The notes under the pieces were generated by a model that saw nothing but the letters and a program-made list of their open reading frames with translations, was not told the DNA's origin and did not search any database. This document shows positions 42,331-54,387 of a stretch of DNA of 64,000 bases, piece after piece. The position numbers and the translations under genes are program-made. This stretch comes from Bacteroidales bacterium (GTDB lineage Bacteria; Bacteroidota; Bacteroidia; Bacteroidales; NBLH01), in assembly GCA_016937695.1 (NCBI GenBank), contig JAFGWC010000047.1, positions 11,529 to 75,528 on the forward strand. Reading direction: 5' to 3'. Numbering within the stretch: the first letter of the stretch is position 1; every line of letters starts with the position of its first letter.

Positions 42331-43368
42331 GTGCAGATAGATTTTCATTACAATACAATAAGAGTTTTGATGGAAAAAGTTGGTTTTTCATCTGAAGATT
42401 CTCAGATAATAGCATATTCTTGTCAATTTGTAGATGATGCTGTTGATCATGAAGAGATGAATGTAAATGGAAGATTAGATATTTTGCATAAACGATTTTC
42501 AAATAAAACATTCAATCCTGTTTGCACAGCTCATAAAGGACTGCAATTTTTAAAAGGATTTAAAAAAGATGTTCAAGATAGAATATATATTCCCTTTCAT
42601 TTTTTAGCAGATTTAGATGAATTAAAAAGTGAAAATGATTCATTTATTGTAAACCCAAATGGTAATTTAGCTAAAAATTTGGTTCTTTTAGCTAAAACGG
42701 AATTAAGTAAAACCACAGGCGAAGAAAGAATAATGAATTTAGTAAGATTGGGAATTGCAATACATACATATTCAGACACTTGGGCTCACCAAGGATTTTC
42801 GGGTCGCCACAATTCAGTTGAAAACGATATTGAGGATATTGAATTATATCAAGAAGGAAAATGGGAAAAGATTTCGTTTATTAACAATCTGGAATACAAC
42901 TCATTGCCAGATATTGGTCATGCCGAAGCCGCAAGTTATCCGGATCAATCGCATCTTAAATGGAGATATCGAAAACTTAGTACAAACACTATTATAGAAA
43001 GAGATAATTCCAAAATTTTTCTTGAAGCTGCTGAAAATATTTTTAACATATTTATAGGTATAAATAAAAAATCAGAATGGGAATCTTTAAAAACAAAACT
43101 GAATGAATGTTTCTTATTTTACAGCGATTCACTTGACGAGAAATTCAATAAATTTCAAAAAGTTTTTCCTGAAATTGGATTTTATTACGATTCAAAACAA
43201 TGGCATAACGAAGCATTAAGTGTTGTAAAACCCAATAATATTGTGAAAAAAATTAAAGAAGATAAGCCAAATTATATTTTGGGAAGCGATAAAAAATGGT
43301 TTTATTTTCATCTTGCAGCTCTAGAGCAAAGAGAATTTATAATTAAATTTCTTCAATTTCAGAAATAA
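42331..43368 (+). CDS. Conserved hypothetical protein with a His-rich motif (IAIHTYSDTWAHQGFSG) reminiscent of zinc phospholipase-C-like folds; GTG start predicted
   Basis: There is no signal peptide. The ORF opens with GTG at 42331, and an alternative ATG lies at 42370. H/D-rich motifs FHYN, DDAVDH, HTYSDTWAH and DIGHAEA are present. Confidence 0.4.
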   Translation: MQIDFHYNTIRVLMEKVGFSSEDSQIIAYSCQFVDDAVDHEEMNVNGRLDILHKRFSNKTFNPVCTAHKGLQFLKGFKKDVQDRIYIPFHFLADLDELKSENDSFIVNPNGNLAKNLVLLAKTELSKTTGEERIMNLVRLGIAIHTYSDTWAHQGFSGRHNSVENDIEDIELYQEGKWEKISFINNLEYNSLPDIGHAEAASYPDQSHLKWRYRKLSTNTIIERDNSKIFLEAAENIFNIFIGINKKSEWESLKTKLNECFLFYSDSLDEKFNKFQKVFPEIGFYYDSKQWHNEALSVVKPNNIVKKIKEDKPNYILGSDKKWFYFHLAALEQREFIIKFLQFQK

Positions 43369-43417: not shown

Positions 43418-45265
43418 TTATATTCTAAGTCCAAAAACCACAATATCATCAATTTGATCATGATCTGTTCCCATCCAATCTATAATAGTTTGATTAAGAA
43501 TTTCTCTTTGTTCTTTCATTGGTTTTTTATAATTTTCAATTAATAATTCTTTAAATTTCTTTGTTTTAAATTTTTGCCCAAGTTCGCCACCAAACTGGTC
43601 TATATAACCATCTGAAAAAGTATAAAGACAATCATTTTTTTGTAATTGAAATTTATGATTAGTAAAATCTTTTTCTACAATATAAACAGAAATTGGCTGC
43701 CTGTCAGCTTTTAAATGAATGAGCTCCTCAGCACCTTCCCGTAAAATATAAAGTGGATTATACGCTCCGGAAAATTGCAACTCAAGTGTCTCAGAATTAA
43801 TAATATACAAGGCTATATCCATTCCGTCTTTTGTTTCATCTTCTCTTCCCCTTTGACCTAAGGATTTTTTCACTTTATTTCTTAATCTGTTTAATAATTC
43901 TCCTGCATTATCAAGACTTCTCGGACTAACTATTTCATTCAAAAAAGAAGTCCCAAGCATACTCATAAAAGCTCCGGGAACGCCATGTCCAGTACAATCA
44001 GCAACAGCAACAATAATAAAGTTTTTAATTTCGCTAACCCAATAAAAATCACCACTTACAATATCTCTGGGTTTTAATAATATAAAATATTCTTTTAATA
44101 TCTGATTTATATACTCATCCGAAGGGAAAATTGCTTTTTGAATTCTTTTTGCATAATTAATACTATCAACAATATCTTCTTTTTGTTTTAATGCTATATC
44201 TCTTTGAATTTCAATTTCTTCTTTCTGAGTTTCAATTTCTTCATTTTGTTCTTGTATTTCTGCATTTCTTTCCAATAATTGCTCCGATTGAGCTGAAATT
44301 TCTTCGCTTTTTTCTATAATTTCTGCGTTTTGTAATGCTAAAAGTTTATTTGCTTTTCGCTTTGCTCTATAAAGGCTAAATATTATGATTAAAAATATTA
44401 ATATTACTGTAAAAAAAACCGTAAATGCCATTAACCATTGACGTTGCAACTTAACTTGTTCTTTTTGCTTTTGAATTTTTTCTTCTTTAATTTTTTTATC
44501 AATATACAATTGTCCAATTTCTTCACTTTTTTTAATAGTATCTTGTACTAAATCACTTTTCTCATTTTTTACAACAGTTAATGTGCTATCTACAATATTT
44601 AACTGCATTTTTTTTTCTTCACTCTCCTTTACTGCAGATTCATACTTTGTTTCTAGTATATTAATTTTTTGTTTTTCATATGTAATTTTAGTAGATCCTT
44701 TATAACTATTAAACTCTTGTAAATATTCAAATGCAGCTTTATAATTATTTTGACTTGCATATATTTTAACAACTGATTCATATAATTTACAAACAAGACT
44801 TGGATATTTAACGGCTCTTGCTTCCTTAAGTATTTCTTCATAAATAGAAAGAGCTTTTTTAGTTTTACCGTTAGCTTCATATGCTGAACCAATATTATAA
44901 TAAGTTTTTAATTTAGAAATATTATGACCAAGCAATTTTCTTAACTCTAATTCTTTTTCGTAATATTTTATTGCAGATTTATAATTTTCTTGTTTAAAAT
45001 ATGCAGTTCCAATCATGTTTAACGAATTAGCTTGCATATTCTTATCATTCATTTTTTTGGCAAGTTCATAAGCTTTATTGCCATACTTAAGGCTTTTTTC
45101 TGTTGATATTGGTAAATATTCTTTCGATAGTTTATACAGAATCTCATTTTTCTCTATTTCTTCTGCTGTTTGCAATTTTTTTTCAAGAATTTCTATACTT
45201 TGCTGTGCATTTGAAAATAAATAAAAAAATATTATTGATAAAAAAAGAAGTGAAATTTTTCGCAT
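43418..45265 (-). CDS. Membrane PP2C (SpoIIE-family) phosphatase with a periplasmic TPR sensor region and coiled coil
   Basis: The signal peptide ends NA|QQ. It has TPR-like repeats (A...Y.KA...), a TM segment LMAFTVFFTVILIFLIIIFSL, and PP2C motifs SGDFYWV, DCTGHGVPGAF, DGMD and SDGY.DQFGG. Confidence 0.8.
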   Translation of the reverse strand: MRKISLLFLSIIFFYLFSNAQQSIEILEKKLQTAEEIEKNEILYKLSKEYLPISTEKSLKYGNKAYELAKKMNDKNMQANSLNMIGTAYFKQENYKSAIKYYEKELELRKLLGHNISKLKTYYNIGSAYEANGKTKKALSIYEEILKEARAVKYPSLVCKLYESVVKIYASQNNYKAAFEYLQEFNSYKGSTKITYEKQKINILETKYESAVKESEEKKMQLNIVDSTLTVVKNEKSDLVQDTIKKSEEIGQLYIDKKIKEEKIQKQKEQVKLQRQWLMAFTVFFTVILIFLIIIFSLYRAKRKANKLLALQNAEIIEKSEEISAQSEQLLERNAEIQEQNEEIETQKEEIEIQRDIALKQKEDIVDSINYAKRIQKAIFPSDEYINQILKEYFILLKPRDIVSGDFYWVSEIKNFIIVAVADCTGHGVPGAFMSMLGTSFLNEIVSPRSLDNAGELLNRLRNKVKKSLGQRGREDETKDGMDIALYIINSETLELQFSGAYNPLYILREGAEELIHLKADRQPISVYIVEKDFTNHKFQLQKNDCLYTFSDGYIDQFGGELGQKFKTKKFKELLIENYKKPMKEQREILNQTIIDWMGTDHDQIDDIVVFGLRI

Positions 45266-45916: not shown

Positions 45917-48184
45917 CTATATGTCAAAATCTTTTTGAATTATAACTTGTTCTACTCCTTTTATATTTCTAAGTTTTTCTACAAGATTATTAATTACTTC
46001 ATTATCAGCAATATATATATCAACCATGCCATAAAATTTATTATGTAATGTATCAAAATGGAGCGATTTTATATTAATATCAAGTTCAACTGCAATTATA
46101 GAAGTTACTTTGTTCGCTAATCCTGCTATATCTTCGCCTGTAAGTTCAATTCTATATAGTTTTGAGGCAATTTCTTGAGCTGTCCATTTTGCTTTTATTA
46201 TTTCCTTACATTCCTGATTAATGTCAGATTTAAGCTCCTTACAATTTGATTTATGGATACAAATTTTTCCTTCATCACTTTCACAACCAATTACTTCATC
46301 GCCCGGAATAGGATTACAGCAAGAAGCTATTTCAATAAAAGAATTTAACTTTAACTCATCAATTTTAATTTTAGATTCCTTATGTTCAAGAGTTTTCAAT
46401 AAATCAGTTTCTGAAAACTGTAATTTCCAGTATTTTACAAATTTATTTGTAGATTTTTCTTTTATTATTTTAATTAATACAATTTTATCAATTGTTTCGT
46501 TACCAATTTGAAGATATAAATCCTTTTTAGTTGATAAATTAAAATATTTTAGCGTTTTTTTTAAAATTTTAAAATCAATAATGATTTTATTTTTTGCGAT
46601 GAGATATTTAAATGCTTTTTTCCCTTCTCTGATGTAATATTGTTTTTCTTCATTAAAAACTTTGCTTAGAGCTTTTTTAGCTTTGTTTGTAACAACATAA
46701 TTAAACCACTTTTCAACCGGTCTTTGATTGCTTGATGTTAAAACCTCAACAATATCGCCACTGCTAAGTTGATAATTTACAGGAACAACAGTTCTTCCAA
46801 TTTTTGCACCAATACATGATAAAGCTATATCGCTATGAATTTCAAAAGCAAAATCTAAAACAGTAGCGTCTTTTGGCAAAGTAATAATTTTACCTTTTGG
46901 TGTAAATACAAGTATTTCAGATGAAAATAAATTTATATTAAAACTATCAAAAAAATCTAAAGTACTTTCTGAGTTTCCGTTTAATTTGTCTTTTATTTCG
47001 CCAATCCAAACATCTAGTTCAGATTTTTTATCTTCAATACCTTTATATTTCCAATGAGATGCAAATCCCATTTCGGCAATTTCATTCATTCGTTTAGAGC
47101 GAATTTGTACTTCAACCCATCTGTTTTGAGGACTTAAAACGGTTAAATGTAAAGCTTCATAACCATTTTGTTTAGGTTGAGTTATCCAATCTCTTATCCT
47201 TCCTGGATTAGCTTTTTCGTATATTTTTGTAACGCTTGAATATATTTTCCAACATTCTTCAATTTCTTTTTCAGGTGAACTTGGATTAAAAACAATTCTG
47301 ATAGCAAATAAATCATAAACTTCTTCGAATCTAATATTTTTCTTTTGCATTTTAGACCAAACAGAATAAATTGATTTTGCTCTTCCATCTATCTCGAAAT
47401 CAATATTTTGTAAGCTTAAAGATTTAATAATTGGTAATGAAAAATTAGTTATAAACTGAATCCTTTTTTTTTCTGTACCTGAAATTTTACTTGCTATTTC
47501 ATTGTAGATTTCGGGATGTTTAAATTTTAAACTTAAATCTTCAAGTTCGGTTTTTATATTATATAAACCAAGCCTATGTGCTAATGGAACATAAACATAT
47601 AAAGATTCCGCAACTGTTTTTAATTGTTTTTTTTCTGAATATTCTTTAATTGTTCGCATATGATGCAAACGGTCGGCTATTTTTATAAATATAACTCTAA
47701 TATCTGCAGAAAGAGTTAAAAGTATTTTTCTAAAAGCTTCTGCTTGTACAATATTCTGACTATCAATTACTTCTCTTATTTTGGTTAAACCAGATAAGAT
47801 TGAGGCAATTTTATCGCCAAAAATAGTTTTAATGTCTTCAATTTGGATGTCTGTTTCATCAACAATATCGTGCAAAAGCGCAACTATTGCTGATTTAGTG
47901 CCAAGTCCGATATCATTAACTACAATTTTAGCAACATTTATTGAGTGTTCTATATAATATTCTGAAGGATTTTTTTTAATTCCTTTAAATGCGTTATTTG
48001 CAAAATAAAAAGCTTTCCATAATAATTCTTGATCTTCATTCTTCTTTAATCTTCTGCATTTAGTAATAAAATCTTTAAATTTTTGTATACTTTCTTTTTC
48101 AACATTTTCATACTCATCATTTATTTTTTTGTCTGAAAAAAGTTCTTTATCCTGACTTTTTATTTCTTTTTCAACTACGCTCAT
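45917..48184 (-). CDS. Long RelA/SpoT homologue 1: intact (p)ppGpp synthetase motifs, partly divergent hydrolase motifs, plus TGS, Zn-finger and ACT/RRM regions
   Basis: Hydrolase region: H..HD is present, but LLHDIVDET replaces HDxxED and ADRLHHMRT replaces DRLHNMRT. Synthetase motifs are intact: GRAKSIYSVWSKM, YDLFAIRIV, GRIRDWI, GYEALHLTV, EVQIRS and ASHWKYK. TGS is VFTPKG..ITLPKDATVLDFAF and the Zn finger is CCNPIPGD. Confidence 0.85.
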   Translation of the reverse strand: MSVVEKEIKSQDKELFSDKKINDEYENVEKESIQKFKDFITKCRRLKKNEDQELLWKAFYFANNAFKGIKKNPSEYYIEHSINVAKIVVNDIGLGTKSAIVALLHDIVDETDIQIEDIKTIFGDKIASILSGLTKIREVIDSQNIVQAEAFRKILLTLSADIRVIFIKIADRLHHMRTIKEYSEKKQLKTVAESLYVYVPLAHRLGLYNIKTELEDLSLKFKHPEIYNEIASKISGTEKKRIQFITNFSLPIIKSLSLQNIDFEIDGRAKSIYSVWSKMQKKNIRFEEVYDLFAIRIVFNPSSPEKEIEECWKIYSSVTKIYEKANPGRIRDWITQPKQNGYEALHLTVLSPQNRWVEVQIRSKRMNEIAEMGFASHWKYKGIEDKKSELDVWIGEIKDKLNGNSESTLDFFDSFNINLFSSEILVFTPKGKIITLPKDATVLDFAFEIHSDIALSCIGAKIGRTVVPVNYQLSSGDIVEVLTSSNQRPVEKWFNYVVTNKAKKALSKVFNEEKQYYIREGKKAFKYLIAKNKIIIDFKILKKTLKYFNLSTKKDLYLQIGNETIDKIVLIKIIKEKSTNKFVKYWKLQFSETDLLKTLEHKESKIKIDELKLNSFIEIASCCNPIPGDEVIGCESDEGKICIHKSNCKELKSDINQECKEIIKAKWTAQEIASKLYRIELTGEDIAGLANKVTSIIAVELDINIKSLHFDTLHNKFYGMVDIYIADNEVINNLVEKLRNIKGVEQVIIQKDFDI

Positions 48185-48227
48185 ATGCTTTAATAGTCAA
48201 TAATTGCTTTAATACAATATAACAAAA

Positions 48228-48270
48228 TTTGATGTAAAATAAAAGCAAAATATATATATTTTACATCAAA
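48228..48270. other. 13-bp perfect inverted repeat (TTTGATGTAAAAT-17-ATTTTACATCAAA) 44 nt upstream of the RSH-1 start
   Basis: Read directly. On the minus strand it is followed by ATTTTGTTAT. Confidence 0.5.
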
Positions 48271-48444
48271 CTAATAAATTACTTGATTTATTAAACATCA
48301 TTAATTAAAGTGAAAAATATTACAAATTTAAACTTATGATAATCAACTAGTTACAATTAAATTAGGTTTTGGTTTAGATTTTTTGAGATATTTTATAAAT
48401 CTGCATTACTTATTTTTTGTAAGTAATTAGTATACTGATAATTA

Positions 48445-48479
48445 GTCATTAAAAATATTAGAAGTTTATTTTTAATGAC
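48445..48479. other. 13-bp perfect AT-rich inverted repeat (GTCATTAAAAATA-9-TATTTTTAATGAC) ~100 nt downstream of RSH-2
   Basis: Read directly. It is a possible weak terminator of the RSH-2 operon. Confidence 0.4.
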
Positions 48480-48577
48480 CAATTACTAATCTATACTTTA
48501 TAATCACCTATCAATCAATACAATACAAATAATTTTACGCATCACAAAGTATTTAAACTATAGCGTTCAATTTAAAA

Positions 48578-50806
48578 TTAAAATTTTACTCTCTCTACGC
48601 TAGTAATGCCTTTAACTTTTTTTATTTTAAGAATTAATTTATTCAAAGATTTTAAGTTTGACACATACAAAACAACATTTCCCTCATATATTCCATTATT
48701 GCTTTCAACAAAAATTGATTTCATATTTACATCCATGTCATTTGAAATAATGCTTGTAATATCCAATAATAGATTTTTTCTATCAACCCCACTAATTTCA
48801 ATTTTTGCAGGATAAATATGCAGTTTATGTTCTCCCCAAATTACACGAGCTGTAGATTTACCATGTTCTGCGCTAATTTTAATTGCAGTTTCGCAATTTA
48901 TTTGATGAACAATTATTTCACCATTTTCATTTTTAAATGCTATTGATTTATCTTCAGGAATAGGATTACAACAATCGGCAATTACATAATTTTTTTCAGT
49001 TCCTGATTCGTTTATAATATATGGATGTTTATGGCTAAAATTCAATGATAATTCAACAGAATCATCACTTGTTTTAAATTTGAAAATTGATGGAATAAGG
49101 TTATTAAAAAAACTGGTTGATGTAACTGCTCTAAATCCTTTAATTAGTTCTTCATCGCTAATTAATTTTTTAGCTAAATTAAAAAATAAATGTTCTTCAT
49201 TTTTTAAAGTCAATTGTTTCAATAATTTATCTAATGAAAAATCACTTGAAACTATATGTAAAGAATCCATAATATGAAAATATTTATTTTTACCAATTGT
49301 AATATTTTCTTTATTTTCCTTTTTAAAATAGTTTTTCAGATTTAGTTTTGCTCTGGCTGTAACAACCGATTTTAACCATGATTTATCAGGTTTTGATATT
49401 TTAGAGTCAATTATTTCTACTTGATCGGCACTATTTAAAACATACAAATGATTTACTAATTTTTTATTAACCTTTGCGGCCATAAAATTCAAACCCAAAT
49501 CAGTATGAATTTGAAATGCAAAATCTAAAACTGTTGATCCTTTTGGTAATTTAATAATTTTGCCTTTTGGAGTAAAAACATAAATTTCGGAAATGTATAA
49601 GTTTAATTTAAAATTATCTAGAAACTCTAAAGCGTTTTTCCCGGGATTAATAAGCTGATTACCAACTTCTTGAATCCACTTTTCTCTTTCACTTAAATCT
49701 TCTTTGCCTTCATTCTGTTTTTCTGATGAATAACCTCTTTCAGCAATATCTGACATTCTTTTACTTAATATTTGGATTTCATTCCAATTTCCGTCTTCAC
49801 GCATAATGTCAACAATTAAAGCTTCAAAACCATTTGCTTTAGGGTTTTTCACTAAATCCTGCAAACTTCCGCTTCGTGCCATAAAAATATTTGTTATAAT
49901 TTCATATATTTTATAGCATTGGCTTCTTTCTGTTTTTTCATTATCACTTTCAAAAATTAATCTTAACGAATAAAAATTGTGAATGTCTTCAAATGCAAAA
50001 TGTTTATCCTTCATCTTTGTCCATGTAGCATAAAGAGACTTTCGTATTCCTACAATTTTAAATTCAATATTTTCATTTTTTAATAATTGCTTAACTTTAT
50101 TTTCAAATTTATTTAGCAATTTAGTCCTATTATCTTCTGTTGCCTCAATAATTTGCATTAAATTTTTATAATCATCAGGCAAATAGTACTTAAAACTTAA
50201 ATCTTCAAGCTCTCTTCCAATTTTATTTAAGCCAAGTCTTCTGGCCAAAGGTGCATAAACGTATAAAGTTTCGCCGGCTTTTACAATTTGTCTGTTTTCA
50301 GGCATTCCTTGAAGCGTTCTCATATTATGAAGCCTGTCTGAAAGTTTTATTAAAATTACTCTAATATCTTTATGAATTGACATTAGCATTTTTCTAAAGG
50401 TCTCAGCCTGAAGGTTTTGCTCTGCATCATAAACATTTGTAATTTTTGTTAAACCATCAATAATAGACGCTATTTTTTCGCCAAAATGATTTTGTACAAT
50501 TTCTAAAGAAATATCATCATTATCTTCAACAATATCGTGCATTAAAGCACACATTACAGAGTTAACTCCTAAACCTATTTCTTTAACCACTATTTTTGCA
50601 ACTTCTATTGGATGCATAATAAAAGCCTCGCCTGTTCCGCGTTTGGTTCCTTTGTGTGCATCGTATGCAAAATTAAATGCTTTTATAATAAGTTTCCTAT
50701 TTTCTCCTTCATTACATCTTGGGCAAAGCTCCAACAATTCGAGAAATGCATCCCGAACTTCCTTTTCACCTTTTATCTCTATATCAGAAGCTTTATTATT
50801 CATCAA
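48578..50806 (-). CDS. Long RelA/SpoT homologue 2: canonical hydrolase motifs, degenerate synthetase domain (predicted hydrolase-only)
   Basis: The hydrolase motifs are canonical: GEAFIMHP, LMHDIVED and SDRLHNMRT. The synthetase positions are eroded: GIRKSLYATWTKM, IHNFYSLRL (Asp to Asn), GSLQDLV (RxKD lost), GFEALIVDI (His lost), EIQILS (Arg lost) and YSSEKQNE in place of AAHW.YK. TGS, CCNPIPED and the ACT-like end are retained. Confidence 0.8.
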   Translation of the reverse strand: MMNNKASDIEIKGEKEVRDAFLELLELCPRCNEGENRKLIIKAFNFAYDAHKGTKRGTGEAFIMHPIEVAKIVVKEIGLGVNSVMCALMHDIVEDNDDISLEIVQNHFGEKIASIIDGLTKITNVYDAEQNLQAETFRKMLMSIHKDIRVILIKLSDRLHNMRTLQGMPENRQIVKAGETLYVYAPLARRLGLNKIGRELEDLSFKYYLPDDYKNLMQIIEATEDNRTKLLNKFENKVKQLLKNENIEFKIVGIRKSLYATWTKMKDKHFAFEDIHNFYSLRLIFESDNEKTERSQCYKIYEIITNIFMARSGSLQDLVKNPKANGFEALIVDIMREDGNWNEIQILSKRMSDIAERGYSSEKQNEGKEDLSEREKWIQEVGNQLINPGKNALEFLDNFKLNLYISEIYVFTPKGKIIKLPKGSTVLDFAFQIHTDLGLNFMAAKVNKKLVNHLYVLNSADQVEIIDSKISKPDKSWLKSVVTARAKLNLKNYFKKENKENITIGKNKYFHIMDSLHIVSSDFSLDKLLKQLTLKNEEHLFFNLAKKLISDEELIKGFRAVTSTSFFNNLIPSIFKFKTSDDSVELSLNFSHKHPYIINESGTEKNYVIADCCNPIPEDKSIAFKNENGEIIVHQINCETAIKISAEHGKSTARVIWGEHKLHIYPAKIEISGVDRKNLLLDITSIISNDMDVNMKSIFVESNNGIYEGNVVLYVSNLKSLNKLILKIKKVKGITSVERVKF

Positions 50807-50812
50807 TTTTTT

Positions 50813-52366
50813 TTAATAAATTAAATTTATTTGACCTGATTTTTCAATTAATTCGTTATTTTTTGTTCTATATTTTAGATGATAAACATAAGTTCCCTTT
50901 TTACATATTTGCCCATTTAAACTTCCATCCCAAGATTCCATAGAATTATTACTTTTGAAAACGATTTCTCCCCAACGATTGTAAACCACTAAACTATAAT
51001 CATTTACAAAAGAAATTACTGGTTTAAAACTTCTATTTTCATCTTTTGCACTATAAGGATTAAATGCTGTTGGAATATAAATTACAGTTTCCTGATGTGC
51101 ACATGAAATATTTGATTTACTAATTCCTACAATCCCATAAGGATTTCCAGAACCTTCAGTAGCTTCAATATAATAGCAAAAATGACCTTTTGTTGCATTT
51201 CCGTTTAATTCGGGCTGAACAAATTCTGTTACATCATCCTTATAAACAGTATCGTTTGAACTTAATTGTTCAATTAGCTGAAAATCAGCTTCATCTACAC
51301 TTCTATAAATTTTATAGTTATCAACACCTCCAAGCCATGTTTTATATTTTGTCCAATTTAAAATATTAATTTTAGAATTATCTTTATTAGCATATGCTTC
51401 TAACAAAATATTATGGGCAATATTGCTTTCTTTAGACTTAATATTACAAGTATTTAGAGAAATTACTTTATAGTATAAAATTTCTTGAGATGCTTTAATA
51501 TAATCGGTATAATAAATTTCTGCAATTCCGGCAGGAAAAGCTGCTAATGTGTCATAAGTTCCATAAATTGAATCGGATTTAAGCAAAACATATGAATTTA
51601 AAATTGCATTTTCATCTACAGTAAAGGACAAATCTACTTTTTGATATGAATTAATGCTTGCAAAATCGGCATTCATTATTGCAGGTCGTACAGGCATTGT
51701 TGTTGTAACTAACTGAATATTAGAGCTTGACTGTAAAGAATTATCTATATTAAATACTTGGATAAAATAATAATAATCGACATTTGCATCAACATTTGAA
51801 TGTATAAACGCTGTGTCTTGCGAACTTACTTCATTTAATAAAACAGGAATATCAGCAATATTATTTTTATAATAAATTCTGTAACCGCCAATATCGGTTC
51901 CAAAATTTTTAAAAGCAGACCAGTAAATAGTATTTTGTTCCAGACATAAATCAAAATCAACAGGATACAAATATAAAGTAGAAGCTTTTCCGCTCATATT
52001 GCTATATTCAATAACGCCTGCATCATCTTTAAAAGCTGCAATTCGGTATGTTTCAACTCCTAATTCGGGTTCGGCAATTCCAAAATCTGTTCCGTTATCA
52101 ATATAAGTTGTTTGATTTCTATCGTTTATAGTTGCAATTGTATTAAAACTACCTTCAACAACGCCTGTTTCGCCAAAAATTTGTCTTTTAATAATATATC
52201 CGTCTATTAATAAAGGTGAATTTACATGCCAGTTAATAGTTACTTTCTGACTTGTTAGATCAACTGTAACATTATCAATAACAGGTATTTCAACGCTTTG
52301 TGCAAATAAAATATCTGCGAAAGCGAATTGCAAAATAATATATATGATTGTAATATTTTTAATCAT
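50813..52366 (-). CDS. FN3/Ig-like repeat surface protein with a type-B T9SS C-terminal domain
   Basis: The signal peptide ends FA|QS. The C-terminus is AFNPYS...N..FKP......YSLVVYNRWGEIVF.......WDG......C..GTYVY. Confidence 0.7.
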   Translation of the reverse strand: MIKNITIIYIILQFAFADILFAQSVEIPVIDNVTVDLTSQKVTINWHVNSPLLIDGYIIKRQIFGETGVVEGSFNTIATINDRNQTTYIDNGTDFGIAEPELGVETYRIAAFKDDAGVIEYSNMSGKASTLYLYPVDFDLCLEQNTIYWSAFKNFGTDIGGYRIYYKNNIADIPVLLNEVSSQDTAFIHSNVDANVDYYYFIQVFNIDNSLQSSSNIQLVTTTMPVRPAIMNADFASINSYQKVDLSFTVDENAILNSYVLLKSDSIYGTYDTLAAFPAGIAEIYYTDYIKASQEILYYKVISLNTCNIKSKESNIAHNILLEAYANKDNSKINILNWTKYKTWLGGVDNYKIYRSVDEADFQLIEQLSSNDTVYKDDVTEFVQPELNGNATKGHFCYYIEATEGSGNPYGIVGISKSNISCAHQETVIYIPTAFNPYSAKDENRSFKPVISFVNDYSLVVYNRWGEIVFKSNNSMESWDGSLNGQICKKGTYVYHLKYRTKNNELIEKSGQINLIY

Positions 52367-52387
52367 TTTATTTTTTTAATAATTTTT

Positions 52388-53674
52388 TCACAAATCACCT
52401 GCCAAAACTTGAGTAAAAATATCTGTTTGCAAGTATTTATTTGCAAGCTCCATAATATTTTCAGGTGTTATAGTTTTTAATGTTTGTATATAATCATCAA
52501 AATATTTATAAGTTAAACCAAATTGAAGAAGGTTGAGAAAAATCTCAGATTGATTAAAATGCCCATCAAATGCTCTTAATATTTCTCCCATCATATAATT
52601 TCTAACCAACTCTAATTCAGATTCTTGAACCTTTATTTCTTTAATAGTTTTAATTTCTTTATATATTTCTTCAATTGCTTTTTCTTCAAATCCTTTTGGA
52701 ATATTTGCTGAAATAATAAAAATACCTGATTTTAAAAGAGAATTTATATATGAATAAATTCCATAAGTTAAAGCTTTTTTCTCTCTTAAATTTAGCATTA
52801 ATCTTGAACCAAAATATCCACCAAAAATTTCATTTAGAACGTTTAATCCTAAAAAATCAGGATGAGTTTTAGTAATTGTTCTGCATCCTATAACTAAGCT
52901 CGTTTGAACTGCATCTTTTTTATTAAGTATAATTTTTTGATTTTTTTGCTCAATAAAACTATAATTTGCTTTTTTTATATTATTTGTATTTTTCCAATCT
53001 GTTTTTCCAAATTTATCATTTAAAATTTTAAAAGTTTCATTATTCGTTTTTCCTGAAATTACAATTGTACAATTATCAGAACTATAAAAACGTTTATGAA
53101 AGTCTTTTAGTTTATCGATTTTAAGTTTTTTGAAATCTTCTATTTTTAAAACTTGCCCATAAGGATGTTTATTGCCAAAAACAGCTTCATAAAAGCTATT
53201 ATGTGCAATATATTCAACTTTTTCTTGGCTAACAATAAATTGTTGTTTTTCGTTTTGTAAATCGATTAGAAATTCATTCTTAGGAAAAGTTGGGTTTTTA
53301 ATTATATCTTCAACAATTTCAACCGATTGCTCAAAAAAAGATGTTAATGAATAAAGAACAACGCTTGAAAAATGCTTTCCACTTTCTAAGCTAACATAAG
53401 AACCATAAAAATCAAGTTTTTCAGCAATTTCTGATGAGCTTTTTGATTTTGTTGATTGAATTAACATTGAATTAGTGAAGCTTGGAATTAATATATTTTC
53501 AGACTCGCATGTTCCGGCTTTAAAGCTTATTTCCAGTTTAATAACATCCTGATAATCAGAGTTTAACTCATAAACCTCAATGCCATTATCCAACAAATGT
53601 TTATTAATATCAATATAATTGAGCTTATCAATTAAATTGAATTTCGGCGATATTTTTCTGTTAAGGTTAGCCAT
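52388..53674 (-). CDS. M16 (pitrilysin/insulinase) family homologue lacking the HxxEH zinc motif (non-catalytic type)
   Basis: Length and fold pattern are M16-like (two-lobed, ~428 aa). The position of HxxEH reads IPSFTNSML, and no HxxEH occurs anywhere in the protein. Confidence 0.6.
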   Translation of the reverse strand: MANLNRKISPKFNLIDKLNYIDINKHLLDNGIEVYELNSDYQDVIKLEISFKAGTCESENILIPSFTNSMLIQSTKSKSSSEIAEKLDFYGSYVSLESGKHFSSVVLYSLTSFFEQSVEIVEDIIKNPTFPKNEFLIDLQNEKQQFIVSQEKVEYIAHNSFYEAVFGNKHPYGQVLKIEDFKKLKIDKLKDFHKRFYSSDNCTIVISGKTNNETFKILNDKFGKTDWKNTNNIKKANYSFIEQKNQKIILNKKDAVQTSLVIGCRTITKTHPDFLGLNVLNEIFGGYFGSRLMLNLREKKALTYGIYSYINSLLKSGIFIISANIPKGFEEKAIEEIYKEIKTIKEIKVQESELELVRNYMMGEILRAFDGHFNQSEIFLNLLQFGLTYKYFDDYIQTLKTITPENIMELANKYLQTDIFTQVLAGDL

Positions 53675-53679
53675 TTTTA

Positions 53680-54387
53680 TTAGTGCCCTGTATAAACAGC
53701 TTCTTCACCTTGAATATCGTCTGATTTAAATTGAAAACCAAGTCTTTTACCTGTTTGTATTGCCGATTTTTGATTTTTTTGCTGAACCAACTCTAAAGAA
53801 ATAATTTTCATATTGTCGTATGGTGGAACAAGTAAATCGAATTCAAGCACATATTGTAATGAAGATTCAATTACTTCTTTTAGCGCATTTTTATCAATTG
53901 TAGCAACTCCAAAATCTTTATAAAGAGAACTCATTTGTCTTTTTCCTTCAACAAAATAATGAAAATCTTTATTGATAAATAATCTGCCAACCAGATAACC
54001 TAAATCAGATTCTCTATTGTATTTGAAAGAATCGGAAAGAAAATTATATATGTTAATAATTCCACAATAAGTTCCCATTACATTTTTTTGAGCATACGGT
54101 GTTTTCCAAATTTGATGTTCCTTATTAAATTCAAAAACATTTGAATGCATATTGAATAAAATCATATCTCCGGCAAATTTTAAAGCGCATTGAAAACTGC
54201 CTCTATCAATAAATTTAATCCAAGGTTTTCCTTTTACATTTCCAATTTTTTTACTGTATGAATCAGCAATTTCAATCAAAACATTTTTTAACTGATTAAA
54301 AATTTCTAATGTATTAGAGAAAACCTGCTGCTTCATTTCGGCTTTTTCTGTTAATTTTTTAATAATTAAGTCTTCCTTTTTTATCAT
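53680..54387 (-). CDS. Hypothetical cytoplasmic protein (235 aa), first gene of the four-gene cluster ending in RSH-2
   Basis: There is no signal peptide and no motif I recognise. It lies 5 nt upstream of the M16 homologue. Confidence 0.5.
   Translation of the reverse strand: MIKKEDLIIKKLTEKAEMKQQVFSNTLEIFNQLKNVLIEIADSYSKKIGNVKGKPWIKFIDRGSFQCALKFAGDMILFNMHSNVFEFNKEHQIWKTPYAQKNVMGTYCGIINIYNFLSDSFKYNRESDLGYLVGRLFINKDFHYFVEGKRQMSSLYKDFGVATIDKNALKEVIESSLQYVLEFDLLVPPYDNMKIISLELVQQKNQKSAIQTGKRLGFQFKSDDIQGEEAVYTGH

Follow-up and report, generated by a model that had tools for sequence, protein, structure and literature searches.

Two adjacent long RelA/SpoT homologs with a putative division of alarmone synthesis and hydrolysis in an uncultured Bacteroidales genome

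The tandem genes and their catalytic sites

The stretch of DNA analysed here (the window, 64,000 nucleotides (nt)) belongs to an uncultured Bacteroidales bacterium (GenBank assembly GCA_016937695.1, contig JAFGWC010000047.1, positions 11,529 to 75,528) and carries two adjacent genes for long RelA/SpoT homologs (RSHs), named RSH-1 and RSH-2, which appear to share between them the synthesis and hydrolysis of the alarmone (p)ppGpp (guanosine penta- and tetraphosphate). An earlier sequence-only reading of the window had described two tandem RSH frames of 755 and 742 amino acids (aa) with full domain architecture; both were found where it placed them, on the minus strand, a point which it left unmentioned. 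The labels [Hs], [hS] and [HS] denote hydrolase-only long RSHs, synthetase-only RSHs and canonical bifunctional enzymes, respectively, while RSH-1-type proteins are called partners. The two genes and their domains are as follows.

45917..48184, minus strand: RSH-1, long RSH of 755 aa whose synthetase site is complete and whose hydrolase domain is altered yet conserved (open reading frame (ORF), Pfam/NCBIfam, alignment to PDB structures, partner clade)
47564..48013, minus strand: HD domain of RSH-1, residues 58-207
47039..47386, minus strand: synthetase domain of RSH-1, residues 267-382 (RelA_SpoT, 114 bits)
48578..50806, minus strand: RSH-2, long RSH of putative type [Hs], 742 aa from a TTG start (ORF, Pfam/NCBIfam, motif alignment to PDB Rel, RelA and SpoT, [Hs] clade)
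50228..50680, minus strand: HD (hydrolase) domain of RSH-2, residues 43-193 (HD_4, 132.7 bits)
49709..50050, minus strand: pseudo-synthetase domain of RSH-2, residues about 253-366
48590..49585, minus strand: regulatory C-terminal half of RSH-2, with TGS 408-466 (68 bits), helical region, zinc finger CCNPIPED...H...C 612-638 and ACT/RRM 665-739 (ACT_4, 65 bits)

Read in the direction of transcription, RSH-2 precedes RSH-1. The second codon of RSH-2 is ATG and an identical database protein has 741 aa, so its true start is probably at 50803 (ATG, 741 aa). Both proteins match the Pfam domains HD_4, RelA_SpoT, TGS and ACT_4, and both have the domain order (HD, SYNTH, TGS, helical/zinc finger, ACT/RRM) and size (about 700-750 aa) of long RSHs. 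The two proteins score above the cut-off of 499 for TIGR00691 (spoT_relA), at 527 and 506 bits (E 1e-152 to 1e-158), and each possesses the CCNPIP zinc-finger motif (CCNPIPGD in RSH-1, CCNPIPED in RSH-2); the Cys and His columns of the RSH-2 finger are invariant in the alignment. The two are 38% identical across 727 residues.

The benchmark for hydrolase residues was the alanine scan of Acinetobacter SpoT (SpoT_Ab), in which R45, Y51, E82, D83 and N147 are each needed for hydrolysis and the pseudo-SYNTH is a regulatory domain (PMC9974481). RSH-2 keeps R56, H65, H90-D91, E94-D95, K154, D157-R158, N161 and T164, with the motifs IMHP, HDIVED and DRLHNMRT; R45 of SpoT_Ab thereby corresponds to R56, H54 to H65, H78-D79 to H90-D91, E82-D83 to E94-D95, D143 to D157 and N147 to N161. 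The sole deviation in the site is F62 (window about 50621-50623), which stands for the Tyr equivalent to Y51. The sequence-only reading was right about the canonical hydrolase motifs (MHP, HDIVED, DRLHNMRT) and overlooked this substitution. Phe occupies the position in all 11 RSH-2 orthologues of the genus and in 21 of 58 [Hs] proteins, and in only 2 of 96 canonical [HS] enzymes; the Tyr to Phe change is possibly specific to the hydrolase site of specialised [Hs] enzymes. As Y51A inactivates SpoT_Ab, the same residue could be taken to mean that neither site of RSH-2 is catalytic and that the protein serves only as a regulator or as a ribosome-binding decoy, with alarmone removal left to unrelated enzymes such as Nudix. 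However, Phe keeps the ring and recurs in the proteins just counted, the remaining HD residues are canonical, no other part of the protein is as conserved as the HD domain, and many genomes encode two synthetases and no further RSH hydrolase. An inert RSH-2 is very improbable.

The synthetase site of RSH-2 is altered throughout. Its strings GIRK, IHNFYSLR, SLQD, NGFEALI, EIQILS and SSEKQNE are those reported by the sequence-only reading (the fourth given there as GFEALI), and every string quoted there for either protein lies at a canonical catalytic position in the alignment with Bacillus subtilis Rel (PDB 6yxa). The Arg of GRxK is Ile, the Mg-binding Asp is N278, RxKD is SLQD, a Tyr is F327, a His is I331, QIRT is QILS (Arg to Leu) and HWxYK is lost; in the RelSeq numbering, used here for synthetase residues, D264, R241, R295, Y308, H312, R327 and HW.YK are replaced, while E343 and Q345 of RSH-2 itself are retained. 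Among canonical relatives K251, R269, Q325 and the H and Y of HWxYK, positions which were kept out of the class definition, are invariant (138 of 138). RSH-2 has lost catalytic and substrate-binding residues and kept the fold, as expected for the synthetase domain of an [Hs] protein, and (p)ppGpp synthesis by it does not seem plausible on these residues. Its Pfam RelA_SpoT score is 60 bits, compared with the 114 bits of RSH-1, and the N-terminal half of its AlphaFold2 (AF2) model (mean predicted local distance difference test score, pLDDT, 82) superposes on the catalytic fragment of Staphylococcus aureus Rel (PDB 7oiw) with a template modelling (TM) score of 0.91; from score and model together, the pseudo-synthetase fold is predicted to be retained. 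The full-length model fits neither the compact SpoT tau-state nor ribosome-bound RelA, and since both comparisons give TM scores of 0.40-0.50 the model is uninformative on the conformation of RSH-2.

RSH-1 presents the opposite picture. All of its synthetase motifs are present (GRAK, YDLFAIR, GRIRD, NGYEALH, EVQIRS, SHWKYK), as had been claimed, at positions invariant in 138 canonical sequences. Its HD domain retains the metal ligands H80, H105-D106 and D171 along with Y77, K168, R172 and T178, while the guanine-stacking Arg is K71, the ED diad is swapped (D109-E110), an Asn is H175 and HP is HS. In terms of SpoT_Ab, R45 is K71, Y51 is Y77, H54 is H80, H78-D79 is H105-D106, E82-D83 is D109-E110, D143 is D171 and N147 is H175, so that RSH-1 is changed at three essential hydrolase sites (R to K, ED to DE, N to H). 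HDIVDET and DRLHHMRT had been recognised in the sequence-only reading; the Arg to K71 and HP to HS changes had not. The signature HD[IV]xDET, DRL[HY]HMRT is found in all 8 orthologues of the genus and in L077, a locus on a 6.4-Mb JGI contig. RSH-1 retains the Mn ligands and HD motif whose loss characterises a RelA-type pseudo-hydrolase of class [hS]. Judging by these residues it is somewhat more probable that RSH-1 is a synthetase with weak or no hydrolysis than that it hydrolyses well, and the conservative nature of the changes, with the constraint on the domain, keeps the estimate at this level.

Gene census, phylogeny and the probable division of activities

Pfam synthetase and hydrolase models run over the whole assembly (G000; 3.95 Mb, 99.6% complete) gave exactly three synthetase/hydrolase genes, all of them long RSHs, one more than the two of the sequence-only reading. 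The third is:

contig C139 (G000:C139), unlinked: RSH-3, 720 aa, RelA-like (Pfam search of the assembly)

RSH-3 has a perfect synthetase site and an N-terminal domain without HD, ED or DRLHN. Bacteroidia are known to pair a bifunctional enzyme with a second one whose hydrolase domain has diverged (PMC3153485), and from their sequences BT0700/PGN_0465 have been regarded as synthetase-only and BT3998/PGN_1757 as bifunctional (PMC6994654); the names Rel and RshB carry opposite senses in these two papers. RSH-3 lies inside the Bacteroidales synthetase-only [hS] clade (BT0700/PGN_0465 type) and RSH-1 and RSH-2 lie outside it (100/100, ultrafast bootstrap (UFBoot) and Shimodaira-Hasegawa-like approximate likelihood ratio test (SH-aLRT), as for all supports given below). 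By its sequence RSH-3 is the synthetase-only half of the standard Bacteroidales pair. No canonical bifunctional [HS] was found in the assembly, and an HD_4 search of it gave no small alarmone hydrolase, the only HD_4 genes being the three long RSHs. With RSH-3 as the synthetase-only member and no canonical [HS], the tandem pair therefore occupies the usual place of the bifunctional enzyme.

Most other [Hs] genomes are likewise without any further HD_4 protein. No small HD_4 frames were found in G000, G001, G033, G037, G110, G139, G173 or G258. Frames of 181-223 aa resembling small alarmone hydrolases do occur elsewhere (G008:C114, G008:C64, G010:C110, G026:C149, G071:C180, G210:C137). In G033, G289 and G026 the HD motifs of the partner are entirely gone, and the [Hs] protein is the only candidate RSH hydrolase alongside two synthetases.

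All 11 other genomes of the genus hold the RSH trio with the same altered motifs, the tandem genes being 59-65% identical; the RSH-2-type motifs there are G[IV]RK, IHNFQTxRL, GSLQD, NGFEALIVD and EVQILS. Most other Bacteroidales families have two long RSHs, and several families have an [Hs] protein together with a partner with altered or erased hydrolase motifs. An order-wide profile search of 301 genomes from 148 families, followed by motif reading, placed [Hs] proteins in at least nine Bacteroidales families, and about 293 genomes of other Bacteroidota orders gave no comparably strong [Hs] profile match. The pseudo-synthetase profile score alone does not split [Hs] from canonical proteins (a canonical one scores 141.9 bits and a true [Hs] 140.7), so members were confirmed by motif reading and the family counts are lower bounds. 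In a library of 1.8 billion proteins, 43 of the best 150 cluster representatives at 50% identity are [Hs], among them almost every one of the 15 nearest; this is a large and diverse family. With RSH-2 alone as query for related loci on genome contigs no match was found, while a search with a 6-sequence alignment gave 7 loci only, all in metagenome-assembled genomes (MAGs) of uncultured Bacteroidales. All named [Hs] records are from uncultured 'Bacteroidales bacterium' or 'Bacteroidetes bacterium' MAGs and are annotated as GTP pyrophosphokinase or bifunctional.

The careful tree of 63 proteins has an [Hs] clade of 17 rows (99/98), a partner clade of 12 rows (85/98) and a RelA-like clade (100/100), with [Hs], partner and canonical Rel[HS] sharing a separate 100/100 group. 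Families f1, f16, f17, f23, f27, f61, f69, f100 and f129 fall in the one [Hs] clade. As this clade still stands when the synthetase columns are deleted (aLRT 96), it is no artefact of convergent loss, and a convergent origin of the [Hs] proteins was rejected. RSH-2 is in a Bacteroidales-only clade and is not a member of the SpoT orthologous group that came from the proteobacterial RelA/SpoT duplication. On this tree the duplication is evidently old, both paralogues being clades common to several uncultured Bacteroidales families. Two further proteins, in which the synthetase site was apparently lost independently, stand outside the main [Hs] clade. G038:C25 (L076) encodes an HD-intact protein of 640 aa, in a genome with a normal [HS] and [hS] also, and G039:C56 (L035) encodes one with a partly eroded synthetase (DREPRS, IYDLIIITI, EVRIRS), in a genome with two long RSHs only.

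The duplication of two long RSHs in Bacteroidia (PMC3153485, PMC6994654) raises the question of whether the tandem genes are simply the ordinary Bacteroidota pair, a BT3998-like bifunctional enzyme and a BT0700-like synthetase, or a recent duplicate heading to pseudogenisation. The sequence-only reading had itself pointed to the standard pair as the identity that would undo its proposal. The tree and the gene census refute this identity: the BT0700-like [hS] is the third gene, in its own 100/100 clade, no canonical [HS] was found, and the tandem pair is a different one. A recent duplication was rejected in view of the family-spanning clades of both paralogues, and pseudogenes in view of two intact genes conserved across the 11 other genomes of the genus. 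Neither form of this explanation is credible to any serious degree.

Gene order is [Hs] then partner on the same strand in g1, L077, G027, G033, G289, G173 and G110, with spacers of 29 to about 560 nt among relatives. In G139 the two are adjacent but divergent, and in four other genomes the partner is not adjacent. The L077 partner shares the DET/HH/HS signature of RSH-1. Partners of all lineages have an altered ED diad (DET, ETD, QET, SIT, NKT) or have lost the whole HD site.

These partners bear on the view that only RSH-2 is specialised and RSH-1 is still a bifunctional Rel despite its swapped diad, Lys and His, which would give the cell two hydrolases. The metal ligands and the four further residues retained in RSH-1, together with substitutions that are chemically conservative, speak for it, as does an HD domain that is 80% identical in the genus with nonsynonymous divergence (dN) of 0.04-0.11, equal to the active HD of RSH-2. 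Against it, three of the five Ala-sensitive positions of SpoT_Ab are changed together (PMC9974481), and the R45 position is R in 95 of 96 canonical [HS]. The loss of partner HD motifs in the sister lineages G033, G289 and G026 and the altered diad throughout further suggest that hydrolysis became dispensable early in the partner clade. We consider a bifunctional RSH-1 unlikely, if still a serious candidate.

The sequence-only reading had spoken of reciprocal motif decay, and this description does not fit the constraint on the altered domains. Mean identity within the genus is 0.82 for the HD domain of RSH-2 (82-84%) and 0.75 for its pseudo-synthetase (75-77%), 0.80 for the HD and 0.81 for the synthetase of RSH-1, and 0.50 for the pseudo-HD and 0.85 for the synthetase of RSH-3. 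The altered domains of the pair are thus 75-80% identical with dN of 0.01-0.11 (pseudo-synthetase of RSH-2 0.012-0.09 in closer pairs), as against 50% and 0.35-0.42 for the dead HD domain of RSH-3, which evolves 4-8 times faster. With identity and dN like those of active domains, they are fixed, constrained states and not eroding ones. Across the [Hs] clade the replacements recur: of 48 sequences, 35 have N at the Mg-Asp, 27 have F at Tyr308 and 36 have L or M at Arg327. Retained residues recur as well (E323 37/48, Q325 39/48, D298 44/48, the KS serine 45/48).

Such conservation, and the low dN of both domains, would also be expected if the remodelled domains were ligand sensors, the Asp to Asn pocket of RSH-2 binding GDP/GTP or ATP and the HD pocket of RSH-1 binding (p)ppGpp, each paralogue being tuned allosterically by the substrate or product of the other. 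However, several phosphate- and base-binding residues are gone (R241, R295, H312), the only tested analogue, the SpoT_Ab pseudo-SYNTH, binds neither GDP nor pppGpp (PMC9974481), and interdomain packing explains the conservation equally; sensing of this kind is rather improbable. It is quite improbable that the two would form a matched reciprocal feedback switch, in which RSH-2 reads GDP/GTP (or ATP), RSH-1 reads (p)ppGpp and the alarmone level is set independently of the ribosome-linked RelA-like RSH-3.

The explanation that we favour as the likely one is that RSH-1 and RSH-2 are an old tandem duplicate of the Bacteroidales bifunctional Rel with its two activities divided between the copies. 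The activities and the regulation of all three enzymes are what we infer here; the sequences, residue states, clade structure, conservation and gene census are direct observations. RSH-2 would be a dedicated (p)ppGpp hydrolase with an intact Mn-dependent HD site and a synthetase site unable to bind Mg-ATP or activate the 3'-OH, its pseudo-synthetase fold and TGS/zinc-finger/ACT half being kept as a regulatory scaffold, as in Acinetobacter SpoT[Hs]. RSH-1 would be a (p)ppGpp synthetase whose HD domain binds metal but no longer has the geometry for catalysis (R to K, ED to DE, N to H), with probably poor or no hydrolysis, the domain being retained for intramolecular control. With RSH-3 as an unlinked, RelA-like second synthetase, the cell would run on three enzymes, namely two synthetases under separate regulation and a regulated hydrolase, compared with the two enzymes of most Bacteroidales, and splitting the bifunctional enzyme would make synthesis and hydrolysis separately regulable. 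Active alarmone synthetases call for a hydrolase in the cell, spoT being essential in relA+ E. coli (restated in PMC9974481). Because no other HD_4 protein is encoded in G000 or in most [Hs] genomes, and because in several of these the partner HD is completely dead, RSH-2 is most likely that dedicated hydrolase, regulated through its pseudo-synthetase and C-terminal domains by analogy with SpoT_Ab. The sequence-only reading had proposed subfunctionalisation after duplication, with a hydrolase-only RSH-2 and a synthetase-dominant RSH-1; residues, phylogeny and census fit this, but the duplication is not a local event.

Several points weigh against this explanation. The node joining [Hs] and partner clades is a polytomy in the tree of 63 proteins, so that they are only possibly sister clades from one duplication, and the G027 partner is placed outside the partner clade. 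The HD substitutions of RSH-1 are all conservative (K, D/E swap, H) in a domain constrained like an active one, and RSH-1 could still hydrolyse (p)ppGpp or a related nucleotide. The hydrolase of RSH-2 may for its part be weakened or altered through F62, by analogy with Y51A. A 393-nt hairpin-bearing spacer parts RSH-2 from RSH-1, so their co-transcription stays putative. Synonymous sites are saturated even in the closest pairs (dS > 1), so no dN/dS ratio is claimed and constraint is read from dN and identity only.

Spacer and neighbouring genes

The remaining features of the locus are listed below.

48185..48577, minus strand: spacer between RSH-2 and RSH-1, 393 nt, AT-rich, with two hairpins and one TAAATTTG box
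48226-48272, minus strand: spacer hairpin, 16-bp stem, -14.5 kcal/mol, z -3.0, followed by UUUUGUU and ending about 40 nt before the RSH-1 start
about 48434-48490, minus strand: spacer hairpin, stem of about 20 bp, -18.9 kcal/mol, beginning about 90 nt past the RSH-2 stop
48323-48330, in the spacer: TAAATTTG box, not enriched above chance
50813..52366, minus strand: CHU_C type IX secretion signal protein, 517 aa, ending 6 nt before RSH-2 (ORF spacing, Pfam CHU_C)

Both AT-rich spacer hairpins could be terminators, attenuators or repeat elements. Scans for sigma-70 promoters, terminators and the Bacteroidetes TAnnTTTG box gave nothing above chance.

RSH-2 closes a run of four closely spaced genes on the minus strand (50813-54387 plus RSH-2), with gaps of 5, 21 and 6 nt, which encode a protein of 235 aa, an M16_C-only peptidase homolog, the CHU_C protein and RSH-2. 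In f1, f100, f23 and f129, four families in all, the gene immediately upstream of [Hs] encodes a CHU_C homolog of 23-57% identity (tblastn of neighbours: G010, G006, G110, G173, G139, G258), the linkage loci beyond the window being L037, L043, L086, L088, L090 and L092. In f129 an M16 homolog follows the [Hs] gene. If the reciprocal sensor switch described above were true, the type IX secretion cargo gene linked to [Hs] in four families could couple it to envelope or secretion status.

The gene downstream of RSH-1 (43418-45265, minus strand) encodes a protein of 615 aa that combines TPR repeats and a membrane segment with a SpoIIE/PP2C phosphatase domain. G071 has a homolog of it (37% identity) some 3.5 kb away from its [Hs] gene (L091), possibly by coincidence. 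Beyond this gene of the window (42331-43368, plus strand) is a protein of 345 aa that matches DUF6765 over its full length (E 4.5e-67).

Comparison with known systems

The sequence-only reading considered it unusual for a long RSH to combine a dead synthetase with regulatory domains that are intact; this type is already established in the Moraxellaceae SpoT[Hs] (PMC3153485, PMC9974481). In an incomplete survey of the literature no account of an [Hs] long RSH in Bacteroidota was found, and the Bacteroidales pair would be an apparently undescribed, independent repeat of RSH subfunctionalisation. Full partition of synthesis and hydrolysis between two long RSHs is documented and structurally studied only in Moraxellaceae. 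The Bacteroidales pair would offer an independent evolutionary replicate in a different phylum, with the split products side by side, a partner hydrolase site at graded stages among families (from DE-swapped to fully erased) and a pseudo-synthetase with its own conserved signature. It opens the questions of how repeatable Rel subfunctionalisation is, which interdomain contacts are needed when one site dies and why a cell has three long RSHs. The annotation 'GTP pyrophosphokinase' or 'bifunctional' is probably wrong for the whole [Hs] clade. As the host organisms are uncultured, study would rely on heterologous expression.

Like Moraxellaceae SpoT[Hs] (A. baumannii SpoT, PDB 7QPR), RSH-2 is a long RSH with an HD site, intact here except for F62, and a putatively non-catalytic pseudo-synthetase, in which the Mg-Asp and base- and phosphate-binding residues are replaced and the TGS, helical, zinc-finger and RRM/ACT regions are kept, and it coexists with a synthetase-only RelA-type paralogue. 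The origins differ, in that RSH-2 nests in Bacteroidales Rel[HS] and not in proteobacterial SpoT, and its match to 7QPR is weaker than to Rel structures. The substitutions also differ, being Asp to Ser and Gln to Thr in SpoT_Ab, while in RSH-2 the Asp is Asn and the catalytic Gln is kept. Unlike in SpoT[Hs], the split products are adjacent here and a third, RelA-like enzyme was already present, which gives three long RSHs.

Plant RSH1 is also a long RSH regarded as hydrolase-only through substitution in the synthetase site, but it belongs to eukaryotes, is targeted to plastids, has one key substitution in place of a wholesale remodelling, and has no tandem partner. With the standard Bacteroidales pair the system shares RSH-3, which is in the synthetase-only clade and has a diverged HD domain, and the descent of RSH-1 and RSH-2 from the bifunctional lineage; it differs in having no bifunctional [HS] and, in its place, a tandem of [Hs] and partner. 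RSH-1 and RSH-3 resemble the RelA[hS] of Beta- and Gammaproteobacteria in an active-looking synthetase and a non-canonical hydrolase domain that may serve as a regulatory module. However, the pseudo-HD of RelA has no HD motif and has lost Mn binding, whereas RSH-1 keeps every metal ligand and evolves slowly, and from its sequence RSH-1 would represent at most an early or arrested stage of the RelA path.

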